Notes: generated from the sequence alone by a model not told the origin. Positions 3,912 through 23,982 are shown, counted from the stretch's first letter. The stretch is DNA of 26,075 bases from Deinococcaceae bacterium (GCA_040256005.1 JBDZWC010000032.1:1-26075), one strand, 5' to 3'. Translations and numbers: made by a program.

Positions 3912-3943
3912 TTGACGCTGCCTTGACGCCCATGGACTACGTT
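3912..3943 (+). promoter_or_regulatory. Tandem TTGACG box A plus -10 (putative SARP-activated promoter)
   Basis: TTGACGC tgcc TTGACGC ccatggac TACGTT. Confidence 0.7.
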
Positions 3944-3985
3944 CTTCCCAGCTAGCGCTCTTGGCGGTACCTAGAAGGAGGAACC

Positions 3986-4642
3986 ATGAGGCAGCGGAGG
4001 ACCATCGCTCTTGCCGTCCCGGCGGCGGCCCTGGCGCTCTCGGCCTGTGCCCCCACCACCACCGGCGGTGGAGGCGAGGACACCGCAGCTCTCACCGCGC
4101 CGTGCGTCCAGACGCCGCCTCCCACGGTCGCTATCGTCGATTTCCAGAACACCACCGGCACTTACGGGCTGACGGTCGTCGGCGTGGAGGAGGCGGCCTC
4201 CGCCCGCCTGATAACCCTGATGAAGGAGTCGGGCTGCTACGTCGTCGTCGAACGCAGCGAGCTGCTGACGATCATGCAGCAGCAGGGGCTCGAATCGATG
4301 GACCCGGTCGACCTGGCCAAGGCGGCTGGGGCTGGCTACGTGGTCACCGGAACCGTCACCAGGGCCACGATCGCCGAGCCGGGAGCCAGCCTCTTCGGCA
4401 TCACCTTGGGCGAGACGCGGGCGGACGTGGAGGTCGATGTCAGGGCGACCGACATCATCACCGGCGAGGTCATCGTGTCCATGGCCGGCACCGGTACGGC
4501 CAGCAGCCCCAACATCGCCGTCAGCAGCATCCCGAGGGTAGGTACGATCCGGTACGACGACCCCACGGTAGGTCCCCTGCTCGCTGACGCGGCGCAGGCA
4601 GCCGTCACCAAGGTCGTCGCTGCGATCCGAGCCGCCTTCTAG
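3986..4642 (+). CDS. CsgG/HfaB-family lipoprotein
   Basis: Lipobox LSAC; TVAIVDFQN...LITLM...YVVVERSEL...YVVTGTVT...VDVRATDIITGEVI pattern of the CsgG-like fold; SD AAGGAGG. Confidence 0.8.
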   Translation: MRQRRTIALAVPAAALALSACAPTTTGGGGEDTAALTAPCVQTPPPTVAIVDFQNTTGTYGLTVVGVEEAASARLITLMKESGCYVVVERSELLTIMQQQGLESMDPVDLAKAAGAGYVVTGTVTRATIAEPGASLFGITLGETRADVEVDVRATDIITGEVIVSMAGTGTASSPNIAVSSIPRVGTIRYDDPTVGPLLADAAQAAVTKVVAAIRAAF

Positions 4643-4689
4643 GCCGGCGTACGGGGTCGCATCCCAGGCGACGACCGCGCTTCTAGGGA

Positions 4690-4710
4690 CGGCCGCTGCG
4701 ACGGCGGCCG
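4690..4710. terminator. GC-rich hairpin between convergent genes (possible terminator)
   Basis: CGGCCGCTG-cga-CGGCGGCCG, 9-bp stem with one G-U pair; no U tract. Confidence 0.3.
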
Positions 4711-4738
4711 GTCGGGCTATGCGCCGTGAGGCCGGAGC

Positions 4739-5985: not shown

Positions 5986-8900
5986 TCACGGCGACCCCGC
6001 CTCCACCCGCACGGAGCCGTCGCCGGGCACCCGCACGTCGTCGAACACCTCCACCGGGGAAGACAGCACCCTGACCGAGTACGTCCCCATGGGCAGCTCC
6101 ACGGTGTCGCCCACGCGGCCGGTCGCCACCAGCGCCCCCGCGGCGTCGTAGACCTCGAACGATGGCACCAGTGCCTCCGTGATGGCCTGGCTGAGCGTCT
6201 CGTACGACGTGACGTCTACGTAGGTGGCGCCCACCTCCGCGGCCAGACCCTCGAAGACAGCGAGCGACTCGGGGTCGAGTGCTAGGGAGACGATGGCGAT
6301 GGCCACGTCCCCGGCGGCGCGCAGCTCGCTCGCCGCGGCGGCAGGATCGCCTCCGCAGGACTCTGCGCCGTCCGTGATCAGGACGATCGTTCTGGGGCCG
6401 CCAGCCGCGTCGAGGTCCTCTGCCGCCAGCGTCAACGAGTCGGCGATCGCCGTCTGCGACAGCAGCTTGGGCTCTATCGCGCGCACAGCGGCGCGAGCCG
6501 CCTCCCTGTCCAGTGGCCCCAGCGGGACGTCGAGCCGCGTCTCGCAGGAGTTGGGTGCGACGTGGCCGAACGCCCGCAGGGCGAACGGCGTCCCGTCCGG
6601 CAGGATGTCACCCACGAGGGTCTCGAGAGCGCGGATCGCGGCTTCGATGCGCGGCTCGCCGCTGGGCAGTGGCTGGCCCATCGAGCCCGAGGCGTCGAAG
6701 ATCACCTCTACGGCACCGCCGACGGCTCCCTCGGCCACGGTGACGGTAAGGGTGCCCGGTCCAGGAGGTGCCCTGAAGCCGGTCGTGACCTCCACCGCGT
6801 AGCGCTTGGGTCGCCGCAGTAGGCACGAGGCGCGCGCGAACCCGGCGTCGAAGCTACCGACACCGTCGGTCATGTCGTACCTGCCGGAGTTCACCGCGGC
6901 CCAGTCCTGCATGAGGTCCTGGGCGTCGTCGCTGCCGCCCGAGCTGATCTCGAACGTGAACACCCTCGGGCGAACGGACTCGAGGGCAGACCAGAGCTCC
7001 TCCGTGAGCTCGTAGCCGCCGGTCTCCGCGTCGGTGATGAAGAGGATCGCCTTCGTACCGTCCCGCCCCGCCAGCGCCTTGGTGGCCACCAGGAGAGCGT
7101 TAATGGCGTTGCTGGAGTCCGCCCGCCGTGGGTCGAACTCGGCGATGGCCCGTTGCACGCGCTCCGTGTCGCTTGACCAGTAGGGCAGGACCCACAGCGG
7201 CGACGGGTCGTTGAAGGCCAGCACCTGCACCGCCTCCCTGTCGCCGTCGACGTCGCGCGCGAACGCGGCCAGGGAGCTGTACGTGATGGGGCGGTACGGT
7301 CCCACGGACCCGCTCGTGTCCCACGAGAAGACGACGGTGCGCTTCGGTTCTTCCAGTCCCAGGTAGTACTCGCCAGCCTCGACGAAGGCGCTCAACACGA
7401 CCGCCGTCCCGTCCTCACGCCGGTCGAACGCGACGGGTCGCCCTGCGGCGTCCAGGAGGCTGTAGGTGTACGCGATGGCGGGATCACCCTCCAGGCGCAG
7501 GTCGACCACGTTCTCGCCCTCGCTCACCGTGAACACGTACCAGTCCACGTCCTCGCCCACCGCCACGCTGCCGGAGACGCGCACGCCCGGCGTCAGCCGT
7601 GAGGCGCTCTCCGGATCGTCGCCGCCGTCCACCGCTTCCGGCGGCGCGACTGCCGCGCCGGTGGCGCTCCACTCGAACGGGCCCCGCCTGGACATGTTCC
7701 CCCACTCGGCCAGGGCAGAGAGGTACTCACCGTCAACCGCTGCCTCGAAGACCGCGATGTCGGCAGGGGCGCTCACGTTCCGGACGTCCTCGGGCTTGGG
7801 CGCCGTGAAGCGCAGGTAGCGCGCCCACACCGGTTCGTCCAGGTCCGCCCGCATCGTGAGCCCGGACGACAGATCCCACTCGCCCACCGGTGTCCAAGGT
7901 CCGGCGGGCCCGTCGAGGCTCGACTCGACTAGGATCCTGTCGAACCGTTCCCGCGCCTCGGGGCTGTCCGTCCACTCGATCGCGCCGACCTGCGCCGCCC
8001 TCCCGTGCTGGAACCCCACGACGAACGCGAAGGCGTCGTAGCCCTCCAGGTCGATCCTCCTCACGGAGCCTCCCGGCGTCAGCACATCCCGGCCCCGACT
8101 CGGCAGCAGCGGCCGCGACCACACGACGTGGCCACCCAGCTCGGGCGCGGAGAGGTCGAGGCCCGCGAAGAGGCGAACGTCCGCGGCGATGAGCCGCCAC
8201 TCGCCGACGTAACCGTCTCCGCCGCCTTGACTCGACTCGAACACGAGCCTGGCGTACCGGGCCGTGACCGGCTCCTCGAAGAGGAAGGCCTGCTCGTATC
8301 GTGCCGACTCCAGCTCGCCCACGAGCACGGTCTCGAAGCTCTCGCCGTCCAGGGACGTCTCGATGCGGAACCCCCTCAGCTGGCGCTCGGGGGCGGCATC
8401 TGCTCGAGGGTCGAGGGTCGTGCCGACCAGGACCACCGGCCCGTCGGAGGCTAGGCGGAAGGTGGGGCTGTGATCGGCGCCCACCGCGCCTCCCGTGTTG
8501 ATCGCCGTCCGGCCGTCGATGAGCGCCGGGTCCCTGTTCCTGATGTCTTCACCGATCGGCTCAGCGCCGAACCCCGCCCAAAGGGCGTCCGGCCTCCCCA
8601 GCAGCTCGGTAGGCAACGGCCAGTACGAGAAGACACCCACCGGGGAAGCCTCGCAGCGGAGGGCGACCGAGGTCTCGGCCACGGCCCGGGCTTGAGCGGA
8701 CGTGGCGGCCGCCTGCAGCAACAGCGGTACCTGATCGACGACGTCCGCCGGCACGAGCAACCGTACAGGAGCCGCGACGCTCTGTCCGGGTGGCACCTCC
8801 ACCTCCCGTGGCGCCTCGATCCTGACGCGGGCGTCGCTGCCGGCGACCTCCAGGCCGACCGTGGCGGCCTGGGTGCCGTCGTTCCTGACGGTCACCGTTC

Positions 8901-11322
8901 CGGTGACGGTCTGGCCCTCGTGCCAGTACGCCGCGAGCTCGGTGGCGTCCAGTGCCAGTTCCACGCCCAGCGCTCCCGCTTCGCGAGGCACCAGCGACGC
9001 GGGGTCCGGCGGGCTGCCGAAGGCGACGGCGAGGTCGTAGCTGCCGCGTCCGGACAGCCTCAGGTGGGTCGGTTCGCCGCCAGGCAGCATGAACAGGACG
9101 GCGCCGTCCTCCGCTGCTGTGCGTCGCAGGCTGCGATCGGCGAGGACGTCGACGTTGACCGGGCCGGAGGCGGACACGTCGACCCGCAGTTCGGTGTCCG
9201 CCTCGAACACCGGCAGCCGGTAGAAGTCCGGGCCCGAGGTTTCGCCCACGAGCCCGCTCCACGACAGGTTCGCGGGCAACGGCGCGGCCTGGTCCCGAGA
9301 GTCGTTGGGCTCGTAGTCCGCCGGGTCGTACAACGGTCCGAGGAGCGTCAGGCGTAGCTGGTAGTAGCCCGTGGGCACGCCCTCCGCCTCCGGCGGCCTC
9401 AGTTCGACAGCGTGGTCACCTGCCAGGAACCGGCGCTCAGCCACCACGCGGGTCCCCGAGGCCTCCGGCACGGCGGCGTACGCTCTGCCGTCGACCACGA
9501 CAGGGATCGCCAGGTCGCCCTCGGCCGGTAAGAGTTCCAGCCGAACGTGCTGGTCGGTGTCCAGGTGGAAGCGGTAGAAGTCCCGGTCGTCGAGGGAGCT
9601 GAGCCGGCCCACGTGGGTAGCGCCCGGCTGCAGGCGGTTCGCGCGCTCGGGTCGGTCGTTGGGCTCCAGCTCGAGCTGCCCGGGCGGAGGCGGAGGCGGC
9701 GCCGGCAACGGGGCTTCCATGTCCTCATCGGCGGCATCGACAGCGTCCTCCGCCGCGGCCGGCGGGGCGGCGACCAACGCTCGATCCGGTGCCGGGGCGT
9801 CGGCGCTGGGCTCCGGAGCCGGCGCAGGACCCAGCGACAGCCCCCTCACCGCGTACGCACCCTCTCCGCCGGTGACGCGCACGAAGTGCGCGCCCGGCAG
9901 CAGGGTCAGGTCGTCGAGCCTCACGCGCCGTTCACCCGTGGATCGTGCCTGGACCTCGCCGCTGGCGCCCAGCAGCTCGACCGCTGCCACGCCCTCGCCC
10001 ACGGCCTGGATCCGGAACCGTTGTGCCTCGCCGGTCACGCGCAGGAGGAACACGTCCGAGTCCTGTGGGGCGAGCTCGCCGCGCACCTGCAGGTCGGGCC
10101 CAACCTCCGTGGCGCTGTCGACCGTGTCGTTGGGCTCGCGCTCGAAGCCGTCCGCCACCGGGGCGCCCGGGCGCAGCTCGAGCGTGTACTCTCGCTCCCT
10201 CGCGGCGGAGAGACGCAGGAAGTACGTACCTGCGCCGAGGTGCAGGCTGTCCGAGGTGCCGGTCACGCCCCTGCGCTCCTGCAACAGGGTCTCCTCGGCG
10301 TCGTAGAGCCTCAGCTCCACGACGTCCGACGCCTCGAGGACCAGGTCCCACGCGGCCTCGGCGTGCGAGTCGTCTACCTCGATGCGGAACACGTCCCTAC
10401 CTTCGAGCACGCCGGCCACGGTGCCACCCGGCTCGAGCCGCGTGGCCGTGCTGACGTCGTCGTTGGGCTCCGCCTCCACGCCGTCCGCGAACCTCCCGGC
10501 GCGCTCCAACGCGACCCTGATCGCGCTGCCAGCCGGCCAGGGAGCGTTAGGCGCGACGGTCACGACGTACTCGCCCGGTATGAGGCCGAGGTTCTTCAGC
10601 CGCACCGGCGCTGCGCCGGAACCGCTGTCTTCGGCGACCATGCCTGCGGGGCCGGTCACGGCGATGTCGGCCATGACGCCAAGGGGTACCTGCAGGGTGG
10701 CGTTCCAGGCGAACCCGGAGCCTTCTTCGTCGATCGCGAACCGGGCCTCAAGTCCCTCGCCGACCACCGCGTAGACGTCGAACTCTCCGGGGTAGGTACG
10801 ACGCGCATCGTGCTCTCGTGACGGCGGGCTGAGGTCCTGGGGCTGCAGGTGAACGACGTAATCACCCGTTCCGGTGCCGGAGACCCCCAAGACGTAGCGG
10901 CCGGGTGCCACGAGGAACTCGTCCGACTCCGACCACGAGCCGTCCCGCGTGCCGAAGCGGAGGAGGCTGTCGAACGCAGCTACGCTCTCGCCGCCGGTCG
11001 CGAACTCGACGGCGAACACATCCACCTGGGTGAGGGCGCCGCGAGGGCCCTCGATCCCCAGCGTCCATGCCCGCGTCGCGGCCGCCTCGTCCACCACCCA
11101 CGTGAAGGCGTCCTGGTCGCTCTCTGCCAGCACCCCAGCCAGGCAGACGAAAGGTGTAGCGGCGCCGCCGACCCCGGCAGCTGCGTCCGGACCGAGCCGG
11201 GTCGCCTCGGCCGGCGTATCGTTCGGCTCCACCTCCACGGTGCACTCCTGGGCCATGGCGCTGCTCGCCACGGCCAGGAAGCCACCGAGGATCACCAGCG
11301 CCGCGCGACATAGCCTCGTCAT
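5986..11322 (-). CDS. Secreted 1778-aa multidomain protein: EPND/PPC-like repeats, Ig-like, discoidin-like (F5/8C) x2, vWA x2
   Basis: Signal peptide AMA|QE. Five (E/D)xEPND motifs followed by D.D.[FY] strands; Pro-rich linker; FRIETSLDG...ARYARL and VESSLDGP...ARYLRF discoidin-like motifs; MIDAS motifs WDTSGSV...FITDA and FDASGSM...T...LITDG. Confidence 0.85.
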   Translation of the reverse strand: MTRLCRAALVILGGFLAVASSAMAQECTVEVEPNDTPAEATRLGPDAAAGVGGAATPFVCLAGVLAESDQDAFTWVVDEAAATRAWTLGIEGPRGALTQVDVFAVEFATGGESVAAFDSLLRFGTRDGSWSESDEFLVAPGRYVLGVSGTGTGDYVVHLQPQDLSPPSREHDARRTYPGEFDVYAVVGEGLEARFAIDEEGSGFAWNATLQVPLGVMADIAVTGPAGMVAEDSGSGAAPVRLKNLGLIPGEYVVTVAPNAPWPAGSAIRVALERAGRFADGVEAEPNDDVSTATRLEPGGTVAGVLEGRDVFRIEVDDSHAEAAWDLVLEASDVVELRLYDAEETLLQERRGVTGTSDSLHLGAGTYFLRLSAAREREYTLELRPGAPVADGFEREPNDTVDSATEVGPDLQVRGELAPQDSDVFLLRVTGEAQRFRIQAVGEGVAAVELLGASGEVQARSTGERRVRLDDLTLLPGAHFVRVTGGEGAYAVRGLSLGPAPAPEPSADAPAPDRALVAAPPAAAEDAVDAADEDMEAPLPAPPPPPPGQLELEPNDRPERANRLQPGATHVGRLSSLDDRDFYRFHLDTDQHVRLELLPAEGDLAIPVVVDGRAYAAVPEASGTRVVAERRFLAGDHAVELRPPEAEGVPTGYYQLRLTLLGPLYDPADYEPNDSRDQAAPLPANLSWSGLVGETSGPDFYRLPVFEADTELRVDVSASGPVNVDVLADRSLRRTAAEDGAVLFMLPGGEPTHLRLSGRGSYDLAVAFGSPPDPASLVPREAGALGVELALDATELAAYWHEGQTVTGTVTVRNDGTQAATVGLEVAGSDARVRIEAPREVEVPPGQSVAAPVRLLVPADVVDQVPLLLQAAATSAQARAVAETSVALRCEASPVGVFSYWPLPTELLGRPDALWAGFGAEPIGEDIRNRDPALIDGRTAINTGGAVGADHSPTFRLASDGPVVLVGTTLDPRADAAPERQLRGFRIETSLDGESFETVLVGELESARYEQAFLFEEPVTARYARLVFESSQGGGDGYVGEWRLIAADVRLFAGLDLSAPELGGHVVWSRPLLPSRGRDVLTPGGSVRRIDLEGYDAFAFVVGFQHGRAAQVGAIEWTDSPEARERFDRILVESSLDGPAGPWTPVGEWDLSSGLTMRADLDEPVWARYLRFTAPKPEDVRNVSAPADIAVFEAAVDGEYLSALAEWGNMSRRGPFEWSATGAAVAPPEAVDGGDDPESASRLTPGVRVSGSVAVGEDVDWYVFTVSEGENVVDLRLEGDPAIAYTYSLLDAAGRPVAFDRREDGTAVVLSAFVEAGEYYLGLEEPKRTVVFSWDTSGSVGPYRPITYSSLAAFARDVDGDREAVQVLAFNDPSPLWVLPYWSSDTERVQRAIAEFDPRRADSSNAINALLVATKALAGRDGTKAILFITDAETGGYELTEELWSALESVRPRVFTFEISSGGSDDAQDLMQDWAAVNSGRYDMTDGVGSFDAGFARASCLLRRPKRYAVEVTTGFRAPPGPGTLTVTVAEGAVGGAVEVIFDASGSMGQPLPSGEPRIEAAIRALETLVGDILPDGTPFALRAFGHVAPNSCETRLDVPLGPLDREAARAAVRAIEPKLLSQTAIADSLTLAAEDLDAAGGPRTIVLITDGAESCGGDPAAAASELRAAGDVAIAIVSLALDPESLAVFEGLAAEVGATYVDVTSYETLSQAITEALVPSFEVYDAAGALVATGRVGDTVELPMGTYSVRVLSSPVEVFDDVRVPGDGSVRVEAGSP

Positions 11323-11409: not shown

Positions 11410-11997
11410 TCACATGCCCTCGTCCGAGAGGACCCGGTCGAGCGCGAACTCGCCCGCCACCTCTATCGTTTGCTCAGGGTCGGGCTCGTCGGTCCTGAGG
11501 TCCTCCACGAGGCCTAGAAGCGCGCGGAACGTGCCCGTCACCCTGTAGGTGCCGTCGTCGGACATCTCCAGCGTGGCGACGACGAGTTCGCCCTCCAGCA
11601 TGGCGTAGACGTCCTCGAGCATCGATGGGGTCGAGATGTACCTGATGTCCACCTCATCGGCGACGCAGGGGCAGTCGAGCGAACCGAGCATCCCGGACAA
11701 CAGCAGGGTTCCTTCGATCCCGTAAGCCTGTTGGGCGTGCGCCTCGACCTCGAAGCTCAGCAGCGTCACCGGGCCGAAACCCATGTTCCGCAGCCAGCTC
11801 GTTCCGTCCGCGCCTTCTTCGGCTTGAGACTGGTACTCGAGGGCGTACCAGGTGCGCTCCTCGCCGGCCAAGGTGCCGGTCACCGTACCGGTGACCGTGA
11901 ACTGCTGTGCGGTCGCGACCGAGGCTCCCAGGAAAGCGAGGCCGGCGATGACGGCCGCGGCCAACCTCCGCGCGAACCATGTCCTGCGGCGATCCAC
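11410..11997 (-). CDS. Probable independent 195-aa secreted beta-rich protein (internal start within the 1028-aa ORF)
   Basis: AAGGAGGAGGT-8 nt-GTG at 11997, then MDRRRTWFARRLAAAVIAGLAFLGASVATA|QQF, a complete Sec signal peptide. Confidence 0.7.
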   Translation of the reverse strand: MDRRRTWFARRLAAAVIAGLAFLGASVATAQQFTVTGTVTGTLAGEERTWYALEYQSQAEEGADGTSWLRNMGFGPVTLLSFEVEAHAQQAYGIEGTLLLSGMLGSLDCPCVADEVDIRYISTPSMLEDVYAMLEGELVVATLEMSDDGTYRVTGTFRALLGLVEDLRTDEPDPEQTIEVAGEFALDRVLSDEGM

Positions 11998-14496
11998 CGT
12001 CTCAGACCTCCTCCTTTTCCTGATCCGTGTCGAAGTCGTTCCCTCGCCCGCCAGAAGTGCCGCTCGGCTGATGGACGAGGGCGTCAGCAGCGCTTGGCGT
12101 GACTCGCATCGGTTGGCGTTGGTCCCCCCGGCGAAGATCAGAGTGCCGATGACCACCACGACGCTGACCACGACAGCACCTGCCAGCCCGAGCGCAAGGC
12201 CAGCGCCCAGTCCTGCGAGGAGGGCCAGCTCGACGCCAACCTTGCACATGCATGTCCGGTAAGCCTCTCCCGTGAGCCTCCAGCAGGGCTTGAGGAACTC
12301 GCTGATCAGGAGCCCCGCGACCACGCCGATGATCGAAACGCCGATGAGGGTCTCCAACTCCGCCTCTTCGGTCGCGTCCTGACCGCGTCCAGCGGCGGTG
12401 ACGCCCAGGGTCTCACCCGTCCGCGTGTCGACCCGCCACCAAGCCAGGTCAGTGCCATCTGGCAGAGGACCTTCCGGCAAGACGAGGGCGTAGCCGTTGT
12501 CCAGGTCCCTAGTGAGCGCCGGCAGCGCCGACGCCGGGACGTCAAGCGCGTCCAACGCTGCAACGTCCCCGGGCGAGACGACCAGCAGCGACCCACCCGC
12601 CGCCGTCACGGTCTCGTACGTCCCCTGGGTGATATCACCGTCACCTGCCAGACCGGCCACGAGGGCGCGCTCCAGCGCCGTCTCCCAGGCGCCCGCGAGG
12701 ACTGCACGGACGGGCGCGGTGACCACCTGGTCTCCTCTGGCCTCCAGGAAGCGGCGCCGGTTGTTGACGATGTCAACGCCGAACTCATAGGTGACGATCT
12801 CACCGGGAGTCACCGCCTGCTCGAGCGCCACGATCGTGGGTTGCGCGCGGTACGCGTGGGCGGTGACGGCCCCGCCGTCGCTTCCGCTCGGGGACGGGGC
12901 GGTGCCGCCGACGGCATCGAACCCGGCTACGAGGTTCAAGTGCGCCCGGACGCGCAGGTCCGCCAGTATCTCGGTGAGGGCAGCGTCGGCCGCTGCGTCT
13001 TCCGGTATCGGTCCCGCCGCCATCAGGCGCTCGAGAACGTCAACGTAGTTGAGCGCCTGTTCGGCTGCCTCGCGCACCACGTAGTCGGGTGAGAGACCGC
13101 CGCTGACCACGACGAAGTCGAACTGCGTGAGGATGCCGTCCAGCAACACGCTCTTGTCCTGCAGGTCGGTGCCACCATCGACTCGGGAGCGAGGTGTGAG
13201 CCGATCGAACAGGAAACGTCGATGCCGCGTCTCGTCGCCGTTGGGCCCGACGAGCGTGAAGTCGATCCATTCAGCAGTGAGTGCGACAGCCTCTTCCGTC
13301 GCGGGCCCGTCCATCCCTCCCAGGGCCCCGGCGGCCCGGCCGAACCGTTCGCCCTCCGTCTGGAACACGCCGGCCCTGCCCCCGCCGAGCACGTCGGGCG
13401 GAACGACGTTGCCGAGCAGGTCGAACGCCTGCGCGCCGGGGGGCAGCGACCCGTTCAACTGGGGCACGTAGAAAGTGACATCGGCGAGCTCGGTGCCAAG
13501 TTGGTCGATCGTCGTGCCGTCCTCGACTCCTATCGGGACGTTGCCGATGGAAAGGTTCATGCCGAACAGGTTCGCCGCCGGTATCTCCCAAGGGTCCATG
13601 AGGGGGCTCGTCTCGAGCCTCTCGCCCAGTTTCCGCTCGACGAAGACCTCGACGCGCAGTCGATGGGTCAGCTCGGCGGGTACAGCACCTTCCAGGTACC
13701 TGTCCGCGCTCACCTCCGGGGGCGTCTGGTCGGCGAACGCCGGGTGCGCCGCTTCCCAGGGGTCGTCGGCGCTCAGCCGGTACTCCACCCAGGCGTAGTC
13801 GCGTGCCTCCTCGAGCAGATCGGACGTGACGTCGCCGCCGACAGCGAGCCCGGCTGCCTCGAGACTGGCCAGGATGTCGTCACGCGCGGAGGACGCCCGT
13901 TGGTAGTCGGGGTGCGTGGTGAGGTCGAAGCTCTCCCGAGAGCGCAGCGCCTGCTCCAGCTCGGCTTGGCTCACGCCGGCCCGAGAGGCGAGATCGGCCA
14001 GTGCTCGCTCGTCAGGTGCGGAGGCAGACGTCACTCCGGACGGCCGGAACATGCTCGCCAACAGGCGGCCGGCGCCGTTCTCATCGAGCCGGCCTAGCGC
14101 GACCCTGGTCTGGTAGCCGGCGTCGCCCAGCAGATTCGCGAGGAGAACTGACTGGTCGAGCGCGTTGCCGGCCCTGGCGACGAGCGTGCCTTGCGGCCCC
14201 CGCAGGAGCCCTGCGTAGGTCTCGTAACGGATCGTCGACGTCACGTGATCCACGATGGCCGCAGCGTCCTCGAACGAAAGCGCAAGGCCGAGAGCCTCCA
14301 CGTCAACCAGCGCAGGGTCGATGGACTCCAACGCCGCAGCGGCCACTCGCCGGCGGCTCTCCAAGGTCTCCATCAACTGCGCTTCGAGATCGGCGGAACC
14401 CTGCGCGATCGCCCTAGGCGCCAGCTGGAAGGCCAGGCACACGCACAGAACGGTCGTGATGACCCTCTTCATCAGGCTCGATCCACTTGCGCCCAT
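11410..14496 (-). CDS. Secreted transglutaminase-like protein (catalytic residues substituted) with a hydrophobic C-terminal region, continuing in frame into a second secreted protein
   Basis: SD AGGAGGAG; signal peptide AIA|QG; YAGLLRGPQGTLVARAGNALDQSVLLANLL...YAWVEY...W..AHP transglutaminase-like core; two hydrophobic helices around aa 715-790. Confidence 0.75.
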   Translation of the reverse strand: MGASGSSLMKRVITTVLCVCLAFQLAPRAIAQGSADLEAQLMETLESRRRVAAAALESIDPALVDVEALGLALSFEDAAAIVDHVTSTIRYETYAGLLRGPQGTLVARAGNALDQSVLLANLLGDAGYQTRVALGRLDENGAGRLLASMFRPSGVTSASAPDERALADLASRAGVSQAELEQALRSRESFDLTTHPDYQRASSARDDILASLEAAGLAVGGDVTSDLLEEARDYAWVEYRLSADDPWEAAHPAFADQTPPEVSADRYLEGAVPAELTHRLRVEVFVERKLGERLETSPLMDPWEIPAANLFGMNLSIGNVPIGVEDGTTIDQLGTELADVTFYVPQLNGSLPPGAQAFDLLGNVVPPDVLGGGRAGVFQTEGERFGRAAGALGGMDGPATEEAVALTAEWIDFTLVGPNGDETRHRRFLFDRLTPRSRVDGGTDLQDKSVLLDGILTQFDFVVVSGGLSPDYVVREAAEQALNYVDVLERLMAAGPIPEDAAADAALTEILADLRVRAHLNLVAGFDAVGGTAPSPSGSDGGAVTAHAYRAQPTIVALEQAVTPGEIVTYEFGVDIVNNRRRFLEARGDQVVTAPVRAVLAGAWETALERALVAGLAGDGDITQGTYETVTAAGGSLLVVSPGDVAALDALDVPASALPALTRDLDNGYALVLPEGPLPDGTDLAWWRVDTRTGETLGVTAAGRGQDATEEAELETLIGVSIIGVVAGLLISEFLKPCWRLTGEAYRTCMCKVGVELALLAGLGAGLALGLAGAVVVSVVVVIGTLIFAGGTNANRCESRQALLTPSSISRAALLAGEGTTSTRIRKRRRSETVDRRRTWFARRLAAAVIAGLAFLGASVATAQQFTVTGTVTGTLAGEERTWYALEYQSQAEEGADGTSWLRNMGFGPVTLLSFEVEAHAQQAYGIEGTLLLSGMLGSLDCPCVADEVDIRYISTPSMLEDVYAMLEGELVVATLEMSDDGTYRVTGTFRALLGLVEDLRTDEPDPEQTIEVAGEFALDRVLSDEGM

Positions 14497-14542
14497 GGTC
14501 GCTCCTCCTGCTCGGTTCGTCCGGCTTGTCGTTGCTGTTCGG

Positions 14543-14574
14543 AAGCTAGCGAGCCAGCGTCAAGATGGCGTCAA
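14543..14574 (-). promoter_or_regulatory. Tandem TTGACG box B plus -10
   Basis: Minus strand reads TTGACGC catc TTGACGC tggctcgc TAGCTT. Confidence 0.7.
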
Positions 14575-14596
14575 TGGCGGCGCCGGTCCCACGGGC

Positions 14597-15223: not shown

Positions 15224-15302
15224 GACCTACCGCCTACGGGCATGTGCCGGGGACCCGTGGAGCGGTCGCCGCGGCCCATGAACCTGGAACGATCCCGTGT
15301 CC

Positions 15303-15515
15303 TCATGCGATCCCTCCTCCGCCCGGGCGCCCGTCCTCGGTAGCTTCCAGGTCGACGCCGGGAACGTCAGTGCTCGCTTGCAGGAAAGAGCTCAGGTCGC
15401 CAAGGTCAGCGAACAGGCGCAACCGCCCGTCGGCGATGTCGCGCAGGCTGGCTCGGACGTCGCCTCGCTCGTCGTGCCACAGATGCAGCAGGAAGCGTCG
15501 GTCATCACCCGCCAT
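15303..15515 (-). CDS. Small 70-aa hypothetical protein downstream of the BTAD regulator
   Basis: SD GGAGGTG 5 nt before the ATG; FLLHLWH..G.VRASLRDIADGRLRLFADLGDLSSFL (beta-beta-beta-alpha pattern); own promoter box C. Confidence 0.7.
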   Translation of the reverse strand: MAGDDRRFLLHLWHDERGDVRASLRDIADGRLRLFADLGDLSSFLQASTDVPGVDLEATEDGRPGGGGIA

Positions 15516-15546
15516 GACATCACCTCCAGCGGTCGATCACGCGCGA

Positions 15547-15579
15547 AGGTTAGACGGCAGACCGTCAAGGGGACGTCAA
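15547..15579 (-). promoter_or_regulatory. Tandem TTGACG box C plus -10, overlapping the regulator's stop codon
   Basis: Minus strand reads TTGACGT cccc TTGACGG tctgccgtc TAACCT (9-nt spacer). The regulator TGA (15576-15578) lies in the first repeat. Confidence 0.65.
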
Positions 15580-18083
15580 GGCGCCCGAGAGAGACCGTCC
15601 AGCCACGCCGCCGGCCTCCCTCTCAACGCTTCGAGCAGAGAACGGGGCAGCCCTGCCGCTTGCGACGCGAGGAGCCCGTCGACCTCTCCTCGCTCCTGCT
15701 GCAGCTCGGGCGTTGCCTCGCCGGCGGTGGAAGCTCTCCAGCGCGCTAGCAGGAGGCGGGCATGCGGCGCCTGCAGGAACTCGAGCCGGGGCATAGACCC
15801 TTCGAGCTCGCGAGCTGCCTGATGGGCGATCTGGTCGTGGTCGTCCGTGGCGCCCTGAAGGAACCCAACTCTCAACCGCGCCATGGCGGCGAGCGCACCT
15901 ATGTGTTCGCTCTCGCTGCCATAGTCGAGGGCACGTCCGCACAGTCGGAGCGCCGCCTCCGGCTCGATCGAAGCCAACGCCAAGCCGAGCCACAGCCACG
16001 GCGCCACGTCCGCGAGCTGTGGGCCGGACAGACGCGCCAGCGGCTCCTCCACCTGGGCGATACGGGTCGGGTCGGCCAAGGCCCCGGCAACGAGACGACT
16101 GGCCTCGACGGCCGACGCCTTGCGTTCATCGCCGACTTCCTCCGCCAGTCGGGCAGCCTCTGCCAGCAGGTCGAAGGCGTCGTCGAAGCATCCGCAGTGG
16201 GTGGCGATCTCCGCCTTCTGCTCCTGCGCCAGAAGCATGAGCCGCGGCTCCCGGAGCTGCTCGGCGATCTCCTCGACCTCGACTGCCGTGTTCCATGCCG
16301 GGCCGAGCTCCCCGAGACGCGTGTACACGACCGAGAGGTTGACGAGGACCTGCCCTTGGTGGGACTCCGACCCGGAGCGCTTGGCCAGCGTGAGGCTCTC
16401 CTTGAAGTGCTTGAGCGCGCGACGATAGTCCCCCAACCTCTCGGCCGTGGCCGCCAGGTTGTTGAGAGTGCCCGCGACGCTCGCGTGTTCGCCCGCTGCC
16501 CTACCGAGGGTGAGAGCGATCTCGAGGTGCGACAACGCCTCGCGGGTCCGGCCCTGGACGCCTGCGATGCCGCCCAGGTTGTTCCGCGCCCGGTACCGCT
16601 CGACGGGGTCCGCGACGTCGACGTTCTGCAGGAACGACTGCTCGGCGCCCTGCAGGTCACCGGCGTAGAACTGGGCGCCACCGACCGCGTTCCTCGCGCG
16701 TGCGATGAGGCGCTCGTCGCCCAGGCGCGTAGCGATCTCGAGCGCCTCCAATGCGCTTTCGAGGCCCTCGCCGACCTTGCCGGCGCGCAGTAGAGAGCGC
16801 GACCGGCGCATGCGGACGTCGGCCATGCCAGCGTCGGTCTGCAGCTGCCATGCCAACGCCTCGGCTTCCGCCAACGCAGCCTCCTGCAGCCCGAGGTCGC
16901 CCAGCTGGGCGGCGCATCCCTCCAGCAGCAGCGCTGCCTGGAGCCGGATAGGCGGCGACTCGAAGGCACTCCACAGGGCTCGCATCAGATGGGGCACCGC
17001 CGTCGCCGGGTCAGCAGATCCGATCGCCTTCTCGGCGGCCTCGAGCAGCACTGGAGCCGCCTCACCAGCGTCGCCGGCCGAGAGCAGATGTCGGGCGACC
17101 GTATCCGGCTTGGAGCCCGGGACAGCGCGGAGTGCACCCGCCACCCTGTGATGCAGTAGGCGCTTCACGACGTCTGGTGTGGAGGCGAGCACCACTTGCT
17201 CGGCCCTGTCCGTGAGCGTGAGGTCAGGCTCCAGCCACCCGGCGGACTCGAGTCGAGCGAGGTCGGCTGCGACGTCCAGCGGCATCCTCTCGACCACGCG
17301 AGCGATGGCCTCCACGTCGAGCGCCCCGGCGGCCACAGCCACGACCTGGGAGAGCCCGCGCAGCTCGGGCTCGAGCCGCCCGAGCTCGTCCTCGACCGGT
17401 AGGGGTTCGCCTCGTCTGATCAGGCTCTCGAGCGTGGCCGTCTCTGGAGCGGGCTCGAAGCCCAGCTCCTCACGCAGTGAGTCGCGGAACGTGGCGAATC
17501 GTTCCAGCGACCGACGCACCTCACCCGCGGCGTACGCGGCCCTCATGGCGGCCCGCACCAGCCTCTCGTCGAGCGGTTCCAGTTCGAGCGCCGCGTCCAG
17601 TACCGCCAGTGCGTCCCGGTGCCGTCCGCGACCTCGCAGCCGCTCGGCGACGGCACGAGCCGCCCTGACCGTGAGCTCGGCGACCCGGCGCCGCTCCATC
17701 TCGAGCCAGTCCACAAACGCCGGCGACGCGACGCGGTCCAGGCCCGGAAGCAGTTCGCCCGTGGTGACGACCTCCACCGCGTCGTCGGACTCAGCATCCT
17801 CGAGTGCTTGGACGTCCGTGACCGCGTCGAGCCGTACGGAGTCGCCGTATTCAGCCAGCCACTCTGAAGCACCGCGCAGGTGTCGGAGCGAGTACAGCTC
17901 CTGCCGCAGGTTGGCCAGGCGCCCGGGGCCCCAGAGGAGGTCAGCGAGGTCTTCCCTCCTGGCACCTTCGGGGCGCAGGCACAAGTATGCCAGTAGCGCG
18001 GCGCCCTTGCGGGACACCGGCCCGACGTCCCCGCCCATGTGAGCGAAGCCGATCCGCCCGAGCAGCGTGGCGGTAAGCGGCAT
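15576..18083 (-). CDS. SARP/AfsR-like transcriptional activator (wHTH + BTAD + TPR), with no recognisable ATPase domain
   Basis: RKGAALLAYL...RREDLADLLWG...NLRQELYSLR (OmpR-type wHTH); ELLPGL...FVDWLEMERRR...LEPLDE...LREELGFEPAPET (BTAD); TPR repeats ARNAVG, ARNNLG, TLNNLA, VLVNLS. Confidence 0.9.
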   Translation of the reverse strand: MPLTATLLGRIGFAHMGGDVGPVSRKGAALLAYLCLRPEGARREDLADLLWGPGRLANLRQELYSLRHLRGASEWLAEYGDSVRLDAVTDVQALEDAESDDAVEVVTTGELLPGLDRVASPAFVDWLEMERRRVAELTVRAARAVAERLRGRGRHRDALAVLDAALELEPLDERLVRAAMRAAYAAGEVRRSLERFATFRDSLREELGFEPAPETATLESLIRRGEPLPVEDELGRLEPELRGLSQVVAVAAGALDVEAIARVVERMPLDVAADLARLESAGWLEPDLTLTDRAEQVVLASTPDVVKRLLHHRVAGALRAVPGSKPDTVARHLLSAGDAGEAAPVLLEAAEKAIGSADPATAVPHLMRALWSAFESPPIRLQAALLLEGCAAQLGDLGLQEAALAEAEALAWQLQTDAGMADVRMRRSRSLLRAGKVGEGLESALEALEIATRLGDERLIARARNAVGGAQFYAGDLQGAEQSFLQNVDVADPVERYRARNNLGGIAGVQGRTREALSHLEIALTLGRAAGEHASVAGTLNNLAATAERLGDYRRALKHFKESLTLAKRSGSESHQGQVLVNLSVVYTRLGELGPAWNTAVEVEEIAEQLREPRLMLLAQEQKAEIATHCGCFDDAFDLLAEAARLAEEVGDERKASAVEASRLVAGALADPTRIAQVEEPLARLSGPQLADVAPWLWLGLALASIEPEAALRLCGRALDYGSESEHIGALAAMARLRVGFLQGATDDHDQIAHQAARELEGSMPRLEFLQAPHARLLLARWRASTAGEATPELQQERGEVDGLLASQAAGLPRSLLEALRGRPAAWLDGLSRAP

Positions 18084-18102
18084 GTGTACCGTTGTTATAG
18101 AC

Positions 18103-18145
18103 GGCGCGGACCGGCTGAGCCAAGCATGGCCCGCCGGTCCGCGCC
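18103..18145. repeat. Perfect 13-bp inverted repeat upstream of the regulator (terminator or operator)
   Basis: GGCGCGGACCGGC (18103-18115) pairs with GCCGGTCCGCGCC (18133-18145). Confidence 0.6.
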
Positions 18146-18182
18146 CGCTCCTATACGCCGGAGCGACCTAGTTATGCGTCGC

Positions 18183-18626
18183 TCACATGCCTCCGCCGCC
18201 GCCAGCGATCACCTGGAGGAGGGCGCCCACGCCCGCCGCCGCGGACTGGACGGCCAGCAGTGACTGCTGCTCGACGCCCTGCGCCGCCAGCGCTCGGGCA
18301 GCTTCCACCACCGCGGCGAGGTCAGCTGCCTGAGGATGCGACGAGAGGTCACTGGCTATCCCCGCGCCCTGTCCGCCGCACGGATGACCCCAGTCGGCGT
18401 TGAAGCCTTCGCCGCCCTCGCCCACGATGCAGTTGAGCACGTGGCCCAAGTGGCGTGAGGCCATGCCCAGTTCTTCCGCGCTGGCCGAGAAGCCCGAGTG
18501 CTGGATCGCCGTCTGCAGCTCGGTCGCGAGGGCGCCCGTCGGCGCCTCGATCATCTGCGAGGAGACGACCCCTATCGCCAGGGCGAGCGCTACTGCTGCG
18601 ATTACCTTGGTCCCTATCCTCTTCAC
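18183..18626 (-). CDS. Secreted helical protein with His/Cys motifs
   Basis: GTG start with SD GGGAGGT; signal peptide VSS|QM; TAIQH...RHLGHVLNCIVG...HPCGG. Confidence 0.8.
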   Translation of the reverse strand: MKRIGTKVIAAVALALAIGVVSSQMIEAPTGALATELQTAIQHSGFSASAEELGMASRHLGHVLNCIVGEGGEGFNADWGHPCGGQGAGIASDLSSHPQAADLAAVVEAARALAAQGVEQQSLLAVQSAAAGVGALLQVIAGGGGGM

Positions 18627-18650
18627 GTCCTACCTCCCTAGGTCTAGCTG

Positions 18651-19157
18651 CTACTCGGCCGGTGGGGCATCGATGACGAACTGATCGAGCTGCTCTTCGT
18701 CCGGAGCCAACTCCGCCTCACCCGCCGGGAAGCCGTTGTGTGACAACACGAACGAGATGGCATCGGCGTACTGCTGCGGCTCGAGGCTGCCGGGTGCGCC
18801 GAACGGCATGTTCTGGCTCACGAACCGGTAAAGCGACGCCAGGCTCATGCCCTGCCAAGCCTCGTTCAAAGGCGAGAGCCTGGGGCCCACGCCGCCCTGG
18901 AGGTTCGCCCCGTGACAGCCGGAGCACCGCGCCATGAACAGCTCTTCGCCACGGGCCGCCTGTTCCTCCGTGAACACTCCGGTAGAGACGCCGGCGCGTT
19001 CCTGTGCGGCTGTGGCGCCGTAGTCGTCTCCGCCGTACCTACCCTGAGCCAAGGCCACCGCGGCCACCGCAGTAACCACCAGTAGCGGCACGAGAAGCGG
19101 CAGGCTCAGGCGCCGGTTCCGGGACGAAGGCGCCTTTCGGGACGATGTGTCAGGCAT
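18651..19157 (-). CDS. Monoheme class I cytochrome c
   Basis: ATG 19157 with SD AGGAGG; signal peptide ALA|QG; GVFTEEQAARGEELF, CSGCH, GPRL, distal Met in NMP. Confidence 0.9.
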   Translation of the reverse strand: MPDTSSRKAPSSRNRRLSLPLLVPLLVVTAVAAVALAQGRYGGDDYGATAAQERAGVSTGVFTEEQAARGEELFMARCSGCHGANLQGGVGPRLSPLNEAWQGMSLASLYRFVSQNMPFGAPGSLEPQQYADAISFVLSHNGFPAGEAELAPDEEQLDQFVIDAPPAE

Positions 19158-21443: not shown

Positions 21444-22031
21444 ATGGAACGATTCCACGGGACGACGATCGTGGCGGTGAACCGGGGAGGCGTGACGGCG
21501 CTGGTGGGCGACGGTCAGGTGAGCCTCGGCGACACGATCGTGAAGCGCGGGGCGGTCAAGGTGCGGGCGCTGGCGGACGGCAAGGTCGTCGCCGGCTTCG
21601 CCGGCGCCGTATCCGACGCGTTCACGTTGCTAGATAAGTTCGAAGGCTACCTGGAGACGTACCGAGGCAACTTGACGCGGGCCGCCGTGGAGACGGTGAA
21701 GGAGTGGCGCACCGATAGGGCCCTGCGCAACCTGGAAGCCCTCCTCATCGTCGCCGACCACGAGCAACTGCTCACACTGTCCGGGGCAGGCGACGTCATC
21801 GCGCCGGACGAGCCGGTGGCGGCCGTCGGCTCGGGTGGGCCGTTCGCTCAAGCCGCCGCCACGGCGCTCCTGCGGCACACGGACATGGGGGCCGAGGGGA
21901 TCGCCCGTGCCGCGCTGGCGATCGCGGCAGACATCGACGTCTTCACCAGCGGCAACGCGACCGTGCTAACCGTCACCGCGGACGGCGTCGCGAGCGGTGA
22001 AGGCGCCCAGGACGAGGGAACCGCGTCGTGA
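21444..22031 (+). CDS. hslV: ATP-dependent protease subunit HslV
   Basis: MERFHG|TTI N-terminal Thr nucleophile, GDGQVSLG, GFAG, WRTDRALRNLEA, GSGG. Start ATG 21444. Confidence 0.96.
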   Translation: MERFHGTTIVAVNRGGVTALVGDGQVSLGDTIVKRGAVKVRALADGKVVAGFAGAVSDAFTLLDKFEGYLETYRGNLTRAAVETVKEWRTDRALRNLEALLIVADHEQLLTLSGAGDVIAPDEPVAAVGSGGPFAQAAATALLRHTDMGAEGIARAALAIAADIDVFTSGNATVLTVTADGVASGEGAQDEGTAS

Positions 22032-23392
22032 CCGACCCCTTCGATCCCAACCCGGGTGGCTCGCGCTTCGCCGTAGGAGCTGACGGCGCTACGGCTCAGA
22101 TCGTGCGCAAGGCCGCCGGCCTGACGCCGGCGGAGATCGTCAGGGAGCTCGACCGCCACATAGTCGGGCAGGCGAAGGCCAAGCGGGCCGTCGCGGTCGC
22201 GCTCCGGAACCACTACAGGCGCAGGCAGTTGCCCGAGGAGATGCAGCCCGAGGTCACGCCCAAGAACATCATGCTCATCGGCCCCACGGGCGTCGGCAAG
22301 ACGGAGATCGCCAGGCGCCTGGCCCGGTTGGCCAAGGCCCCCTTCGTGAAGGTGGAAGCGACGAAGTTCACCGAGGTCGGCTACGTGGGTCGCGACGTCG
22401 ACTCGATCGTGAGGGACCTGGTGAGGGCCGCGGAGCTGATGGTCGAGGAGGAGAAGCGGGCCGAGGTCAAGGACCGGGCCAGGGCCGCGGCGGAAGAGCG
22501 CCTGCTCGACGTCTTGTTGCCCGGCGGCAGTCAGGAAGGCCGCGAGCGCATGCAGCGCCTGCTCGCGGACGGCGGGCTCGAGGAGCGCATCGTCGAGATC
22601 GAGGTCAAGGACGAGCCCAACGTGGCCATACCCATGCCGGGCATGGAGGAGACCGGCATGAACCTCCAGGACATGTTCAGGCGGTTCATGCCCGAGCGGC
22701 GCGTCAAGCGCAAGGTCACAGTGAAACAGGCCAGGCGGCTGTTGGAAGACGAGGAGGCCGGGCAGCTCATCGATCGCGACGCGGTCTCGGGCGAAGCGGT
22801 GAGGCGCGCCGAGGAGACGGGCATCGTCTTCATCGACGAGATCGACAAGATCGCCGGCGAAGACCGCACGTCCTCGGCGGACGTCAGCGGCGAGGGTGTC
22901 CAGCGCGACCTCCTCCCCATAGTCGAGGGCACGCAGGTCAACACCAGGCAGGGGCAGGTGCGCACGGACCACGTCCTGTTCATCGCGGCCGGCGCGTTCT
23001 CCACCTCCAAACCCAGCGACCTGATACCGGAGCTGCAGGGCCGCTTCCCTATCCGCGTGGAGCTCGAAGAGCTGTCGCAAGGCGACCTCAGGCGCATCCT
23101 CACGGAGCCGGAGCACGCCCTGACGAAACAGTACGAGGCTCTCCTGGCCGTCGACGGGACACGGATCCGCTTCGACGACAGCGGCGTCGACGCCATCGCC
23201 CGCTACGCCGAGCAGGTGAACAGGGAGGTCGAGGACATAGGCGCCAGGCGCCTGCACACGATCCTCGAGACCGTGCTGGAGGAGGTGTCCTTCGGTACCG
23301 ACCTGGGCGACGTCGTGATCGACGAAGCGCTCGTGAAGGAGAAGCTAGAAGGCGTCGTGGAGGACGAGGACCTGAGCCGCTACATCCTGTGA
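22028..23392 (+). CDS. hslU: ATP-dependent protease ATPase subunit HslU
   Basis: LTPAEIVRELDRHIVGQ, GPTGVGKTE (Walker A), GYVG pore loop, FIDEIDKI, PELQGRFP, IGARRL, C-terminal DLSRYIL. GTGA overlap with hslV; alternative start GTG 22103. Confidence 0.96.
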   Translation: MTDPFDPNPGGSRFAVGADGATAQIVRKAAGLTPAEIVRELDRHIVGQAKAKRAVAVALRNHYRRRQLPEEMQPEVTPKNIMLIGPTGVGKTEIARRLARLAKAPFVKVEATKFTEVGYVGRDVDSIVRDLVRAAELMVEEEKRAEVKDRARAAAEERLLDVLLPGGSQEGRERMQRLLADGGLEERIVEIEVKDEPNVAIPMPGMEETGMNLQDMFRRFMPERRVKRKVTVKQARRLLEDEEAGQLIDRDAVSGEAVRRAEETGIVFIDEIDKIAGEDRTSSADVSGEGVQRDLLPIVEGTQVNTRQGQVRTDHVLFIAAGAFSTSKPSDLIPELQGRFPIRVELEELSQGDLRRILTEPEHALTKQYEALLAVDGTRIRFDDSGVDAIARYAEQVNREVEDIGARRLHTILETVLEEVSFGTDLGDVVIDEALVKEKLEGVVEDEDLSRYIL

Positions 23393-23450
23393 CCGCCTGA
23401 CCGCGCGGCGCGGCCGTGGCGGATCAGTAGCTGCCCCTGGGCCGCCTACC

Positions 23451-23858
23451 TCACTCCTCGGCGACGATCGTCAGCGCGAACGTCACCTCTTTGGTCTTGA
23501 AGCCGTTGGTGGCGCGCACCTTGACGTTCTTCTCGGTCTCGCCGATCTGAGCGTCCTTGGAGACCACGAAAGTCATCTCGTCTTCCGAGATGCCGGATGG
23601 GATCTCCAGATCATCCGCACTCAGGAAGTCGGGTCCGTCGTGGAGGGCAACGACGACGGGTGTGGGCAGCACATCGATGGGCACGGGCCGGCTCACCGTC
23701 ACTTGCACGGTGAACACCTGTCCTGGGTAAGCCTCAACCTCACTCGGCTCGAGCGTTATCGAGAAATCCATGGCCGCGTTGGCGACCAGGGCTTCGCACG
23801 CCGTGAGGAGCCCCACCGCGGCGGCCCCCGCAAGCAACAAGACAGGCAGCCTTCTCAT
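23451..23858 (-). CDS. Small lipoprotein with an Ig-like beta-sandwich
   Basis: Lipobox LTAC; alternating beta pattern DFSITLEP...FTVQVTV...VKVRATNG...FALTI; SD GGAGGAGG. Confidence 0.8.
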   Translation of the reverse strand: MRRLPVLLLAGAAAVGLLTACEALVANAAMDFSITLEPSEVEAYPGQVFTVQVTVSRPVPIDVLPTPVVVALHDGPDFLSADDLEIPSGISEDEMTFVVSKDAQIGETEKNVKVRATNGFKTKEVTFALTIVAEE

Positions 23859-23950
23859 CCCGTATGCCTCCTCCCGCGGGTCGCAGGCCGAGGGCCCACC
23901 CGGAGGCGGCTCTGTCGTAGACGACTCGTCAGCGTTCCCGCGCAGCGCAC

Positions 23951-23982
23951 ACGTTACGTCGCGGCCGTCAAGGCAGCGTCAA
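23951..23982 (-). promoter_or_regulatory. Tandem TTGACG box D plus -10
   Basis: Minus strand reads TTGACGC tgcc TTGACGG ccgcgacg TAACGT; 18 nt (CTTGACGCTGCCTTGACG) are identical to box A. Confidence 0.7.

Follow-up and report, generated by a model that had tools for sequence, protein, structure and literature searches.

A tandem TTGACG promoter element and its predicted SARP-type activator in a Deinococcaceae bacterium

Introduction

Promoters activated by Streptomyces antibiotic regulatory proteins (SARPs) follow a rule in which direct repeats recur with a period of 11 or 22 bp and the 3′ repeat is placed 8 bp from the −10 element (PMC10936776). In AfsR complexes, a 22-bp box centered at −29.5 is occupied by two adjacent SARP protomers, which contact sigma region 4 as well as core subunits, an arrangement termed "sigma adaptation" (PMC10936776). 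The present report concerns a recurrent element, built of two TTGACG hexamers and a −10-like TAnnnT, and the regulator gene situated beside one of its copies, in a 26,075-nt stretch of DNA from a Deinococcaceae bacterium (GCA_040256005.1, JBDZWC010000032.1:1-26075). This whole stretch, referred to below as the window, lies on contig C180 of the organism's own genome (coded G000), which holds six copies of the element. These six are likely promoters that lack a usable −35 and are activated in the manner of SARPs by the regulator encoded at 15576-18083, predicted to occupy the two direct repeats as a side-by-side dimer; the proposal draws on sequence, structural models, and analogy with AfsR.

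The closest described counterpart is the AfsR-afsS system of Streptomyces coelicolor, where afsS lies directly 3′ of afsR. The N-terminal SARP module of AfsR is the best match, by profile and by fold, of the regulator described here, and both proteins carry a C-terminal tetratricopeptide repeat (TPR) region. Both operators comprise two 11-bp direct repeats overlapping the −35/spacer region (PMC10936776), and the primary target, in AfsR known and here predicted, is a small-protein gene, with afsS encoding 63 aa (PMC6988585) and the predicted target here 60-94 aa. The two systems nonetheless part ways in several respects. The regulator here has no NOD/ATPase, its box reads TTGACG(C/G), and the small protein, likened to AfsS by size and gene position only, has a conserved core of its own. 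The further targets predicted here are exported or envelope proteins rather than antibiotic pathway regulators, and the phylum is Deinococcota.

A second comparison is offered by ActII-ORF4, DnrI, and RedD, which lie within the cluster that they control, as is predicted for the regulator here, and several of whose cluster promoters bear heptameric direct repeats ending 8 bp before the −10 (PMC10936776, PMC10972967). Those small proteins, however, have no domain beyond the SARP module, frequently rely on three repeats, and govern antibiotic biosynthesis in actinobacteria, whereas the regulator here has a 600-residue TPR tail, its boxes contain two repeats, and family searches detected no biosynthetic enzymes in its cluster. 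The pho boxes of PhoB/PhoP likewise present tandem 11-bp direct repeats to tandem winged helices in place of a −35; unlike those proteins, the regulator here lacks a receiver domain and has a bacterial transcriptional activator domain (BTAD) after its winged helix-turn-helix (wHTH). EmbR of Mycobacterium tuberculosis shares the wHTH + BTAD fold (TM 0.71) but ends in an FHA domain, and the sources cited here give no such promoter box for it.

According to a 2024 review, SARPs are "exclusively found in actinobacteria" (PMC10972967), and according to another account "mainly" so (PMC10936776). The host here falls outside that circumscription, which is a historical rather than a structural criterion. 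In Deinococcus deserti, a CheY-SARP response regulator is induced after irradiation, its targets being given as not known (PMC3564903). A survey of the literature on SARP/BTAD proteins or TTGACG in Deinococcus, Thermus, and Truepera, with papers in subscription journals outside its coverage, found no operator or regulon described; for Deinococcus, that uncharacterized protein was its only yield.

The tandem TTGACG box

Exact pattern matching and direct reading of the sequence locate four copies of the element in the window:

Box A, 3912-3943, plus strand: TTGACGc-N4-TTGACGc, 9 nt, TACGTT; predicted promoter of the CsgG-like lipoprotein gene
Box B, 14543-14574, minus strand: −10 TAGCTT; predicted promoter of the 1028-aa/1778-aa gene pair
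Box C, 15547-15579, minus strand: −10 TAACCT, with the TGA stop of the regulator (15576-15578) within the first hexamer; predicted promoter of the 70-aa gene
Box D, 23951-23982, minus strand: −10 TAACGT; predicted promoter of the 135-aa lipoprotein gene

The shared 17-mer, TTGACGNNNNNTTGACG, matches exactly at 3912-3928 (+), 14558-14574 (−), 15563-15579 (−), and 23966-23982 (−), and not once in 100 dinucleotide-preserving shuffles of the window. The −10 hexamer follows the second TTGACG after 9 nt in boxes A, B, and D and after 10 nt in box C, and the two hexamers stand 20-21 and 9-10 nt from it. Because of this placement, the failure of a sigma-70 consensus scan (16-18 nt spacer) to call any of the four promoters fits a missing −35. 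Counted in heptamers, the period is 11 bp and the distance from the second heptamer to the −10 is 8 bp (9 bp in box C) in all six boxes of the genome, matching the SARP rule. Boxes A and D have cTTGACGCTGCCTTGACG in common, a run of 18 consecutive identical nucleotides. All four boxes are intergenic and oriented like the downstream gene, whose Shine-Dalgarno sequence and start codon lie 31-92 nt past the −10; in the case of box A, 42 nt separate the −10 from a start codon preceded by AAGGAGG, and the only coding overlap of box C is the regulator stop codon. An original prediction, made by a model from the window alone, had described these four double boxes, each upstream of and co-oriented with a gene, with 18 nt shared between A and D, neither hexamer at −35 spacing, and a geometry like that of SARP promoters; its coordinates and spacings are all correct, and the geometry agrees with the published rule (PMC10936776).

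The genome (3,116,331 bp in 250 contigs, 96.8% complete, 69% G+C) contains six exact boxes, since a whole-genome scan adds C140:2036 (+) and C201:12458 (−) to the four of the window; the four boxes first described are all real, and the total is six. Each of the six is followed by TAnnnT at +9 or +10. Allowing one mismatch adds 13 sites, none with a −10, and allowing two yields 181 sites, one with a −10, equal in this respect to a reversed-sequence control (103 sites, one with a −10); weaker sites in this genome were rejected on that ground. With a crude gene calling that assigns 84% of the genome to coding sequence, exact boxes are noncoding in 6/6 cases, compared with 4/13 and 34/181 for the one- and two-mismatch sites. 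A called co-oriented gene start lies within 150 nt of five of the six exact boxes (all six if the 70-aa gene, too short for the caller, is counted), of none of the 13 one-mismatch sites, and of 9/181 two-mismatch sites. The objection that the motif might be equally frequent in coding DNA, raised together with the original prediction, does not hold for a set of sites that are all noncoding and promoter-positioned. Exact hexamer pairs at other spacers are rare across the whole genome, and the recurring ones (N3 and N12) fall in coding-looking DNA without a −10.

The element extends to the relatives of this bacterium. In a sample of 41 genomes, comprising 40 relatives and G000 itself (genus coded g1, family f1), at least one exact 17-mer occurs in 23, giving 87 rows in total against 14 for a backwards control. 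Among the 85 distinct sites recovered with flanks, TAnnnT is present at +9/+10 in 36/42 in the genus, 20/30 in the rest of the family, and 8/13 in other families, and 34 of the 42 g1 sites have their −10 at +9 as counted from the hexamer, 8 bp past the heptamer. A logo of 47 family sites holds information only at the two hexamers, at position 7, and at a TA(g)nnT 9 nt past the second hexamer. At both repeats, position 7 is C in 32 of these sites and G in 11. The same logo has no conserved hexamer 16-18 nt after either TTGACG, and a third upstream repeat was rejected because no information lies upstream of the first hexamer. On the scale of the phylum, the full element was found in 75 of 301 sampled Deinococcota genomes (f1 43/102, f2 21/112, f4 6/62, f3 1/14, f5 3/10), compared with 2/301 for the reversed control. 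A search of genome contigs for related loci returned two, one duplicating G008 and the other a short Anaerolineales contig without box or small protein.

The regulator

The protein proposed to read these boxes is encoded by the gene at whose end box C lies:

Regulator, 835 aa, 15576-18083, minus strand: SARP module (wHTH + BTAD) at residues 1-225; winged-helix-like bundle at ~239-301; TPR superhelix at ~304-828; no P-loop

Pfam detects BTAD (PF03704) at E 1.2e-19 to 1.4e-18 and TPR_12 at 1.8e-24, with TPR_MalT (6e-9) below its cut-off. PDB phmmer searches with the full-length regulator were swamped by TPR matches, and the N-terminus was used as the query instead. A profile of 14 orthologous N-termini (alignment A1) matches the AfsR chains 8hvr, 8k60, and 8jke at ~1e-11 (best 8e-12) over positions 5-228, spanning wHTH and BTAD, and EmbR at 7e-12. 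The AlphaFold2 model of residues 1-250 (pLDDT, predicted local distance difference test, 87.6) has the beta-alpha3-beta topology of a wHTH. Its six best Foldseek matches are AfsR or EmbR chains (AfsR 8k60/8hvr, E 1e-10, TM 0.63-0.68; EmbR, TM 0.71), followed by generic TPR proteins with E above 5e-3, and the matched AfsR chains are the SARP domains of transcription-initiation complexes. Profile and predicted fold thus identify the N-terminus of the protein as a SARP module most similar to those of AfsR and EmbR, and the wHTH-BTAD-TPR architecture first read from the sequence is borne out.

In the model of the full-length regulator (pLDDT 89.3), only helices are found after residue 120, bar two one-residue bridges near 283-290, and no alpha/beta nucleotide-binding domain is seen. 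Walker A (G....GK[ST]) is present in 0/13 members of the lineage, compared with 5/7 BTAD paralogs of the same genome. Together, these two absences define a SARP-TPR regulator without the ATPase (NOD) of AfsR-type large SARPs. Neither does the Pfam scan find a Response_reg match in the regulator: the receiver of OmpR/PhoB-type proteins is lacking.

The genome holds eight BTAD loci, the regulator and seven paralogs, which differ in the part of the wHTH expected to meet DNA. The recognition helix N(L/V)RQxxYx(L/C)(R/K), preceded by a loop four residues shorter, is found in 14/14 box-associated regulators of A1, 13 of them ending in LR, while its tyrosine occurs in none of the seven paralogs. An unrooted maximum-likelihood tree of 24 SARP domains likewise splits 19 box-associated domains from five paralogs by a branch with 100/99 support.

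A box ahead of the regulator's own gene was sought and rejected, as contig C180 has no further site with zero to two mismatches and a −10. The 99-nt gap upstream of the gene (18084-18182, minus strand) contains a perfect 12-bp G+C-rich inverted repeat, GCGCGGACCGGC ... GCCGGTCCGCGC, without a T-run, followed by TATAAC 12 nt ahead of the regulator ATG; these may represent a terminator or processing hairpin and the regulator's own promoter with a very short leader. Beyond the gap lies the gene of a 147-aa exported protein (18183-18626, minus strand) that has no family match and whose identity within the genus is 72-87%, versus 48-64% for the regulator. Its gene adjoins that of the regulator in all but G005 and G003, in which the two are separated by a 1028-aa-like gene headed by a box.

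Linkage of box and regulator

Two lines of evidence connect the box to this regulator. The first is co-occurrence in relatives, as had been anticipated: within the genus, all eight genomes with a regulator ortholog (E 8e-110 or better) carry two to eight boxes, and the three without (G002, G006, and G009; 87-89% complete), whose best hits of 3e-15 to 6e-8 are paralogs, carry none.

The second is position. In G000 and in 9/11 relatives with a full-length ortholog, the regulator gene has an exact box at its 3′ end; G021 and G023 have variants with two mismatches and one mismatch, respectively, at that position. Regulator, box, and target genes remain linked throughout a bacterial order despite changes in gene order. 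In 10/13 genes examined, including two distant f5 regulators, the regulator stop codon falls inside hexamer 1, hexamer 2, or the −10. The final codons of the regulator are thereby under constraint from a promoter, and transcription of its gene continues into the predicted binding site of the gene's own product. The stop takes the form of TGA in TTGACG or TAG in TAGCCT, at 15576-15579 in the window and at loci L043, L006, L048, L008, L045, L003, L004, L084, and L073. Of 20 boxes sampled in f2, f4, and f5, four directly adjoin a SARP-type gene at its 3′ end (G195, G253, and G117 in f2; G235 in f4), and three of these are then followed by the small protein. This positional linkage is stronger evidence for a regulator-box relationship than co-absence.

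Proposed mechanism and alternatives

Matching geometry and fold are the grounds on which tandem binding and SARP-type activation are proposed, and we infer the later steps from there. Each wHTH would read one heptamer, TTGACG(C/G). With a transcription start ~7 nt past the −10, the center of the 22-bp site would fall near −27.5. By "sigma adaptation", the bound dimer would compensate for the absent −35 contact and bring in the housekeeping RNA polymerase. The C-terminal TPR superhelix may sense a signal and gate the SARP domain without the ATP switch of AfsR. The predicted output, a 70-aa cytoplasmic protein and seven exported or anchored proteins, would amount to a cell-envelope or surface programme.

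Several observations weigh against activation by the local regulator. In the three genomes without regulator and box the complete cluster is missing, CsgG-like and 1778-aa genes included, so that the co-absence covers an entire module and points to inheritance as a unit, not to proof that the regulator reads the box. In G016, a diverged regulator stands beside CsgG-like and 1778-aa-like genes, and there is no exact box. The wHTH, within the first 100 residues, has no match to Pfam Trans_reg_C even at E up to 1, and its assignment therefore rests on the AfsR profile match and the predicted fold. The paralogs in the helix and tree comparisons come from one genome only. No TAnnnT is found at +9/+10 in 21 of the 85 exact 17-mers overall, and none at +9 within g1/f1 in 29/85, part of these being expected chance hits. 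Finally, AfsR and PhoP, an OmpR-family regulator, bind overlapping boxes and compete in Streptomyces (PMC6988585), which makes a second reader of the boxes plausible.

The boxes might accordingly be activator-dependent promoters read by another winged-helix protein, be it of the OmpR/PhoB type or one of the seven other BTAD proteins, with the local regulator a neighbor or co-regulator. PhoB/PhoP-type regulators also employ 11-bp direct repeats in place of a −35, the genome offers eight BTAD loci, and the co-absence of box and regulator is really that of the cluster. We nevertheless consider another reader rather unlikely: the conserved cluster contains no other DNA-binding gene, G002, G006, and G009 keep BTAD paralogs yet have no boxes, the box abuts the 3′ end of this regulator lineage in several families, and the paralogs differ in their recognition helix. 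Should the local regulator bind the boxes, it could in principle repress, by occluding the −35/spacer or by forming a roadblock where its own gene ends, as the site overlaps a region that RNA polymerase must occupy and one box overlaps the regulator's own stop codon. The upstream TTGACG even fits five of the six positions of the −35 consensus TTGACA, but with 20-21 nt to the −10 it exceeds the 16-18 nt allowed by the consensus scan, which calls none of these promoters. As every characterized SARP quoted is an activator with exactly this geometry (PMC10936776, PMC10972967), repression seems quite improbable.

The same resemblance of TTGACG to a −35 hexamer could suggest that the double hexamer is recognized by an alternative sigma factor, or that it represents two ordinary promoters that overlap. 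Such an origin is very unlikely, given that no conserved −10-like hexamer follows either TTGACG by 16-18 nt and the only conserved downstream element is that at +9/+10. Moreover, the strict 11-bp period of two identical hexamers is typical of tandem wHTH dimers, and no sigma-factor gene is linked to the cluster.

G016 is a candidate lineage in which regulator and operator changed jointly. Its BTAD regulator (G016:C41:27652-36152, L087 in part), with an open frame of 1126 aa, is longer and diverged. A replacement 11-bp repeat was not seen there by eye, and a comparison of helix and box for covariation gave no pair.

The small protein

The regulator-proximal box is directly followed by a gene of a small-protein family:

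70-aa protein, 15303-15515, minus strand: core RYLLRVW..WRASLRD..G..F..L..FL

Members of this family range over 60-94 aa, most often 60-80 aa. In an alignment of 14 of them (A2), each directly downstream of a box trailing a SARP-type regulator gene, L10, L24, F35, and L45 are invariant. The small protein is also found behind the boxes of distant SARP-type regulators, in G040, G028, G020, G035, G202, G253, and G235. It has no Pfam or NCBIfam match, and an atlas search gave only unnamed clusters at 0.88-0.90. Its gene appears to be the most conserved target of the predicted regulon. The original prediction had listed the 70-aa gene as a target with a box promoter; what it missed was this rank, along with the overlap between that promoter and the regulator stop codon.

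When the regulator (alignment A3) was modelled in complex with the 70-aa protein (A2), the score was 0.00, which speaks neither for nor against binding. Short contigs from RNA-labelled runs cover the 70-aa gene at 15299-15523 (X20) and 15325-15537 (X17) with a depth of 2-6 and were not used as evidence; one ends 3 nt from the predicted start (~15540), although such contigs cannot show transcript ends. A gene for a secreted mini-peptide beside the regulator (~30-40 codons, with a signal peptide and a short tail), as in RRNPP-like peptide-receptor cassettes, was also sought: inspection of 14480-15620 and 18050-18700 revealed no signal-peptide-like open reading frame of at least 20 aa, which does not prove absence.

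Implications

Comparative evidence, which is strong, largely supports a SARP-type activator system outside Actinobacteria: ATPase-less, with an AfsS-like small-gene partner and a regulon of envelope proteins. Its predicted operator is unusually clean, with six exact sites per genome, and comes with a defined candidate regulon and a conserved small-protein gene, all outside Actinobacteria. If correct, the SARP mechanism of activation would extend to another phylum and to cell-envelope genes. The presence of the element in 75 of the 301 Deinococcota genomes makes the prediction directly testable.

A more far-reaching proposal, which we put forward as tentative, is that of a phylum-wide, ATPase-less counterpart of AfsR-AfsS in Deinococcota. 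The last codons of a SARP-TPR gene would be built into the operator of a protein with a ~45-residue core (RYLLRVW...WRASLRD...F..L..FL), which would be its real output or feedback partner, and the two would jointly turn on a movable set of envelope and surface genes in place of antibiotic pathways. In that event, "sigma adaptation" would be an ancient, general mode of bacterial activation and not an actinobacterial speciality.

The predicted regulon and its genes

The remaining predicted targets in the window are the following:

CsgG-like lipoprotein, 218 aa, 3986-4642, plus strand: Pfam CsgG (PF03783), E 3.4e-18; lipobox LSAC by inspection; predicted regulon member
1778-aa exported protein, 5986-11322, minus strand: F5/8 type C above the Pfam cut-off; probably shares a transcript with the 1028-aa gene
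1028-aa exported protein, 11410-14496, minus strand: transglutaminase-like N-terminal part, transmembrane segment, C-terminal domain
208-aa membrane-anchored protein, 14597-15223, minus strand: N-terminal transmembrane segment by inspection; probably forms one transcription unit with the 70-aa gene
135-aa lipoprotein, 23451-23858, minus strand: lipobox LLTAC; predicted regulon member

The six box-headed units of the genome encode eight products, of which the 70-aa protein is cytoplasmic and the other seven, including the CsgG-like lipoprotein, two giant proteins, and small lipoproteins, have a signal peptide, lipobox, or N-terminal membrane segment by inspection. Across the family, tblastn recovers a syntenic cluster of the CsgG-like, 1778-aa, 1028-aa, 208-aa, and 70-aa genes together with the regulator. 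Its order is rearranged in several genomes, and a box still heads each transcription unit. The predicted regulon would thus be mainly a conserved gene cluster with a few distal genes. Of the dispersed regulon of surface and secreted proteins first envisaged, the exported nature of most targets stands, while the dispersal does not, the core being syntenic.

Orthologs of the CsgG-like protein, sought by protein in all 41 genomes independently of the box, number 16 loci in 15 genomes. An exact box lies 60-150 nt upstream of 12 of these and a one-mismatch box ahead of two (G021 and G024), leaving two with none (a second copy in G018, and G016). In the cluster of relatives, orthologs of the 1778-aa and 208-aa proteins share 46-63% and 38-66% identity, respectively. 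The 1778-aa protein also has PPC and FixG_C-type Ig-like matches, both below cut-off; the vWA label initially given to its operon did not survive, as Pfam found no vWA domain and F5/8 type C instead. Transglut_core in the 1028-aa protein (E 0.0038) is below the Pfam cut-off, and 15-28% of the members of its atlas neighbors (scores 0.95-0.96) carry PF01841. Its C-terminal ~190 residues (~837-1026) correspond by tblastn to a separate gene in relatives, located between the small-protein and 208-aa genes. The frame running on without a stop in the 1028-aa gene indicates a fusion or a lost stop. This C-terminal part has an apparent signal peptide of its own and is paralogous to the box-driven 239-aa protein on C201. 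There (C201:12427-12458, minus strand), the 239-aa gene starts 9 nt after the −10, making its mRNA leaderless or nearly so, unlike the other five box-driven units of the genome, whose Shine-Dalgarno leaders measure 31-104 nt.

Apart from Big_7 in an 885-aa lipoprotein, few other family matches are found among the box-linked products, and the 135-aa lipoprotein has none in Pfam or NCBIfam. The pairing of box D with the 135-aa gene recurs in G001, G003, G004, G005, and G011, at loci fetched through the box. In G002 (L088, G002:C83; aligned with window 23440-24090), only the last ~130 nt of the 135-aa gene are left, directly behind an esterase stop codon, and the box, leader, and N-terminal two thirds are gone. 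This single case is consistent with a target decaying once the module had been lost. At the opposite extreme, 11 kb of G202 (G202:C2:5096334-5107595) accommodate five full elements, two SARP-type regulator genes, and one small-protein gene, an arrangement that looks like a denser version of the system described here in a larger genome of the family.

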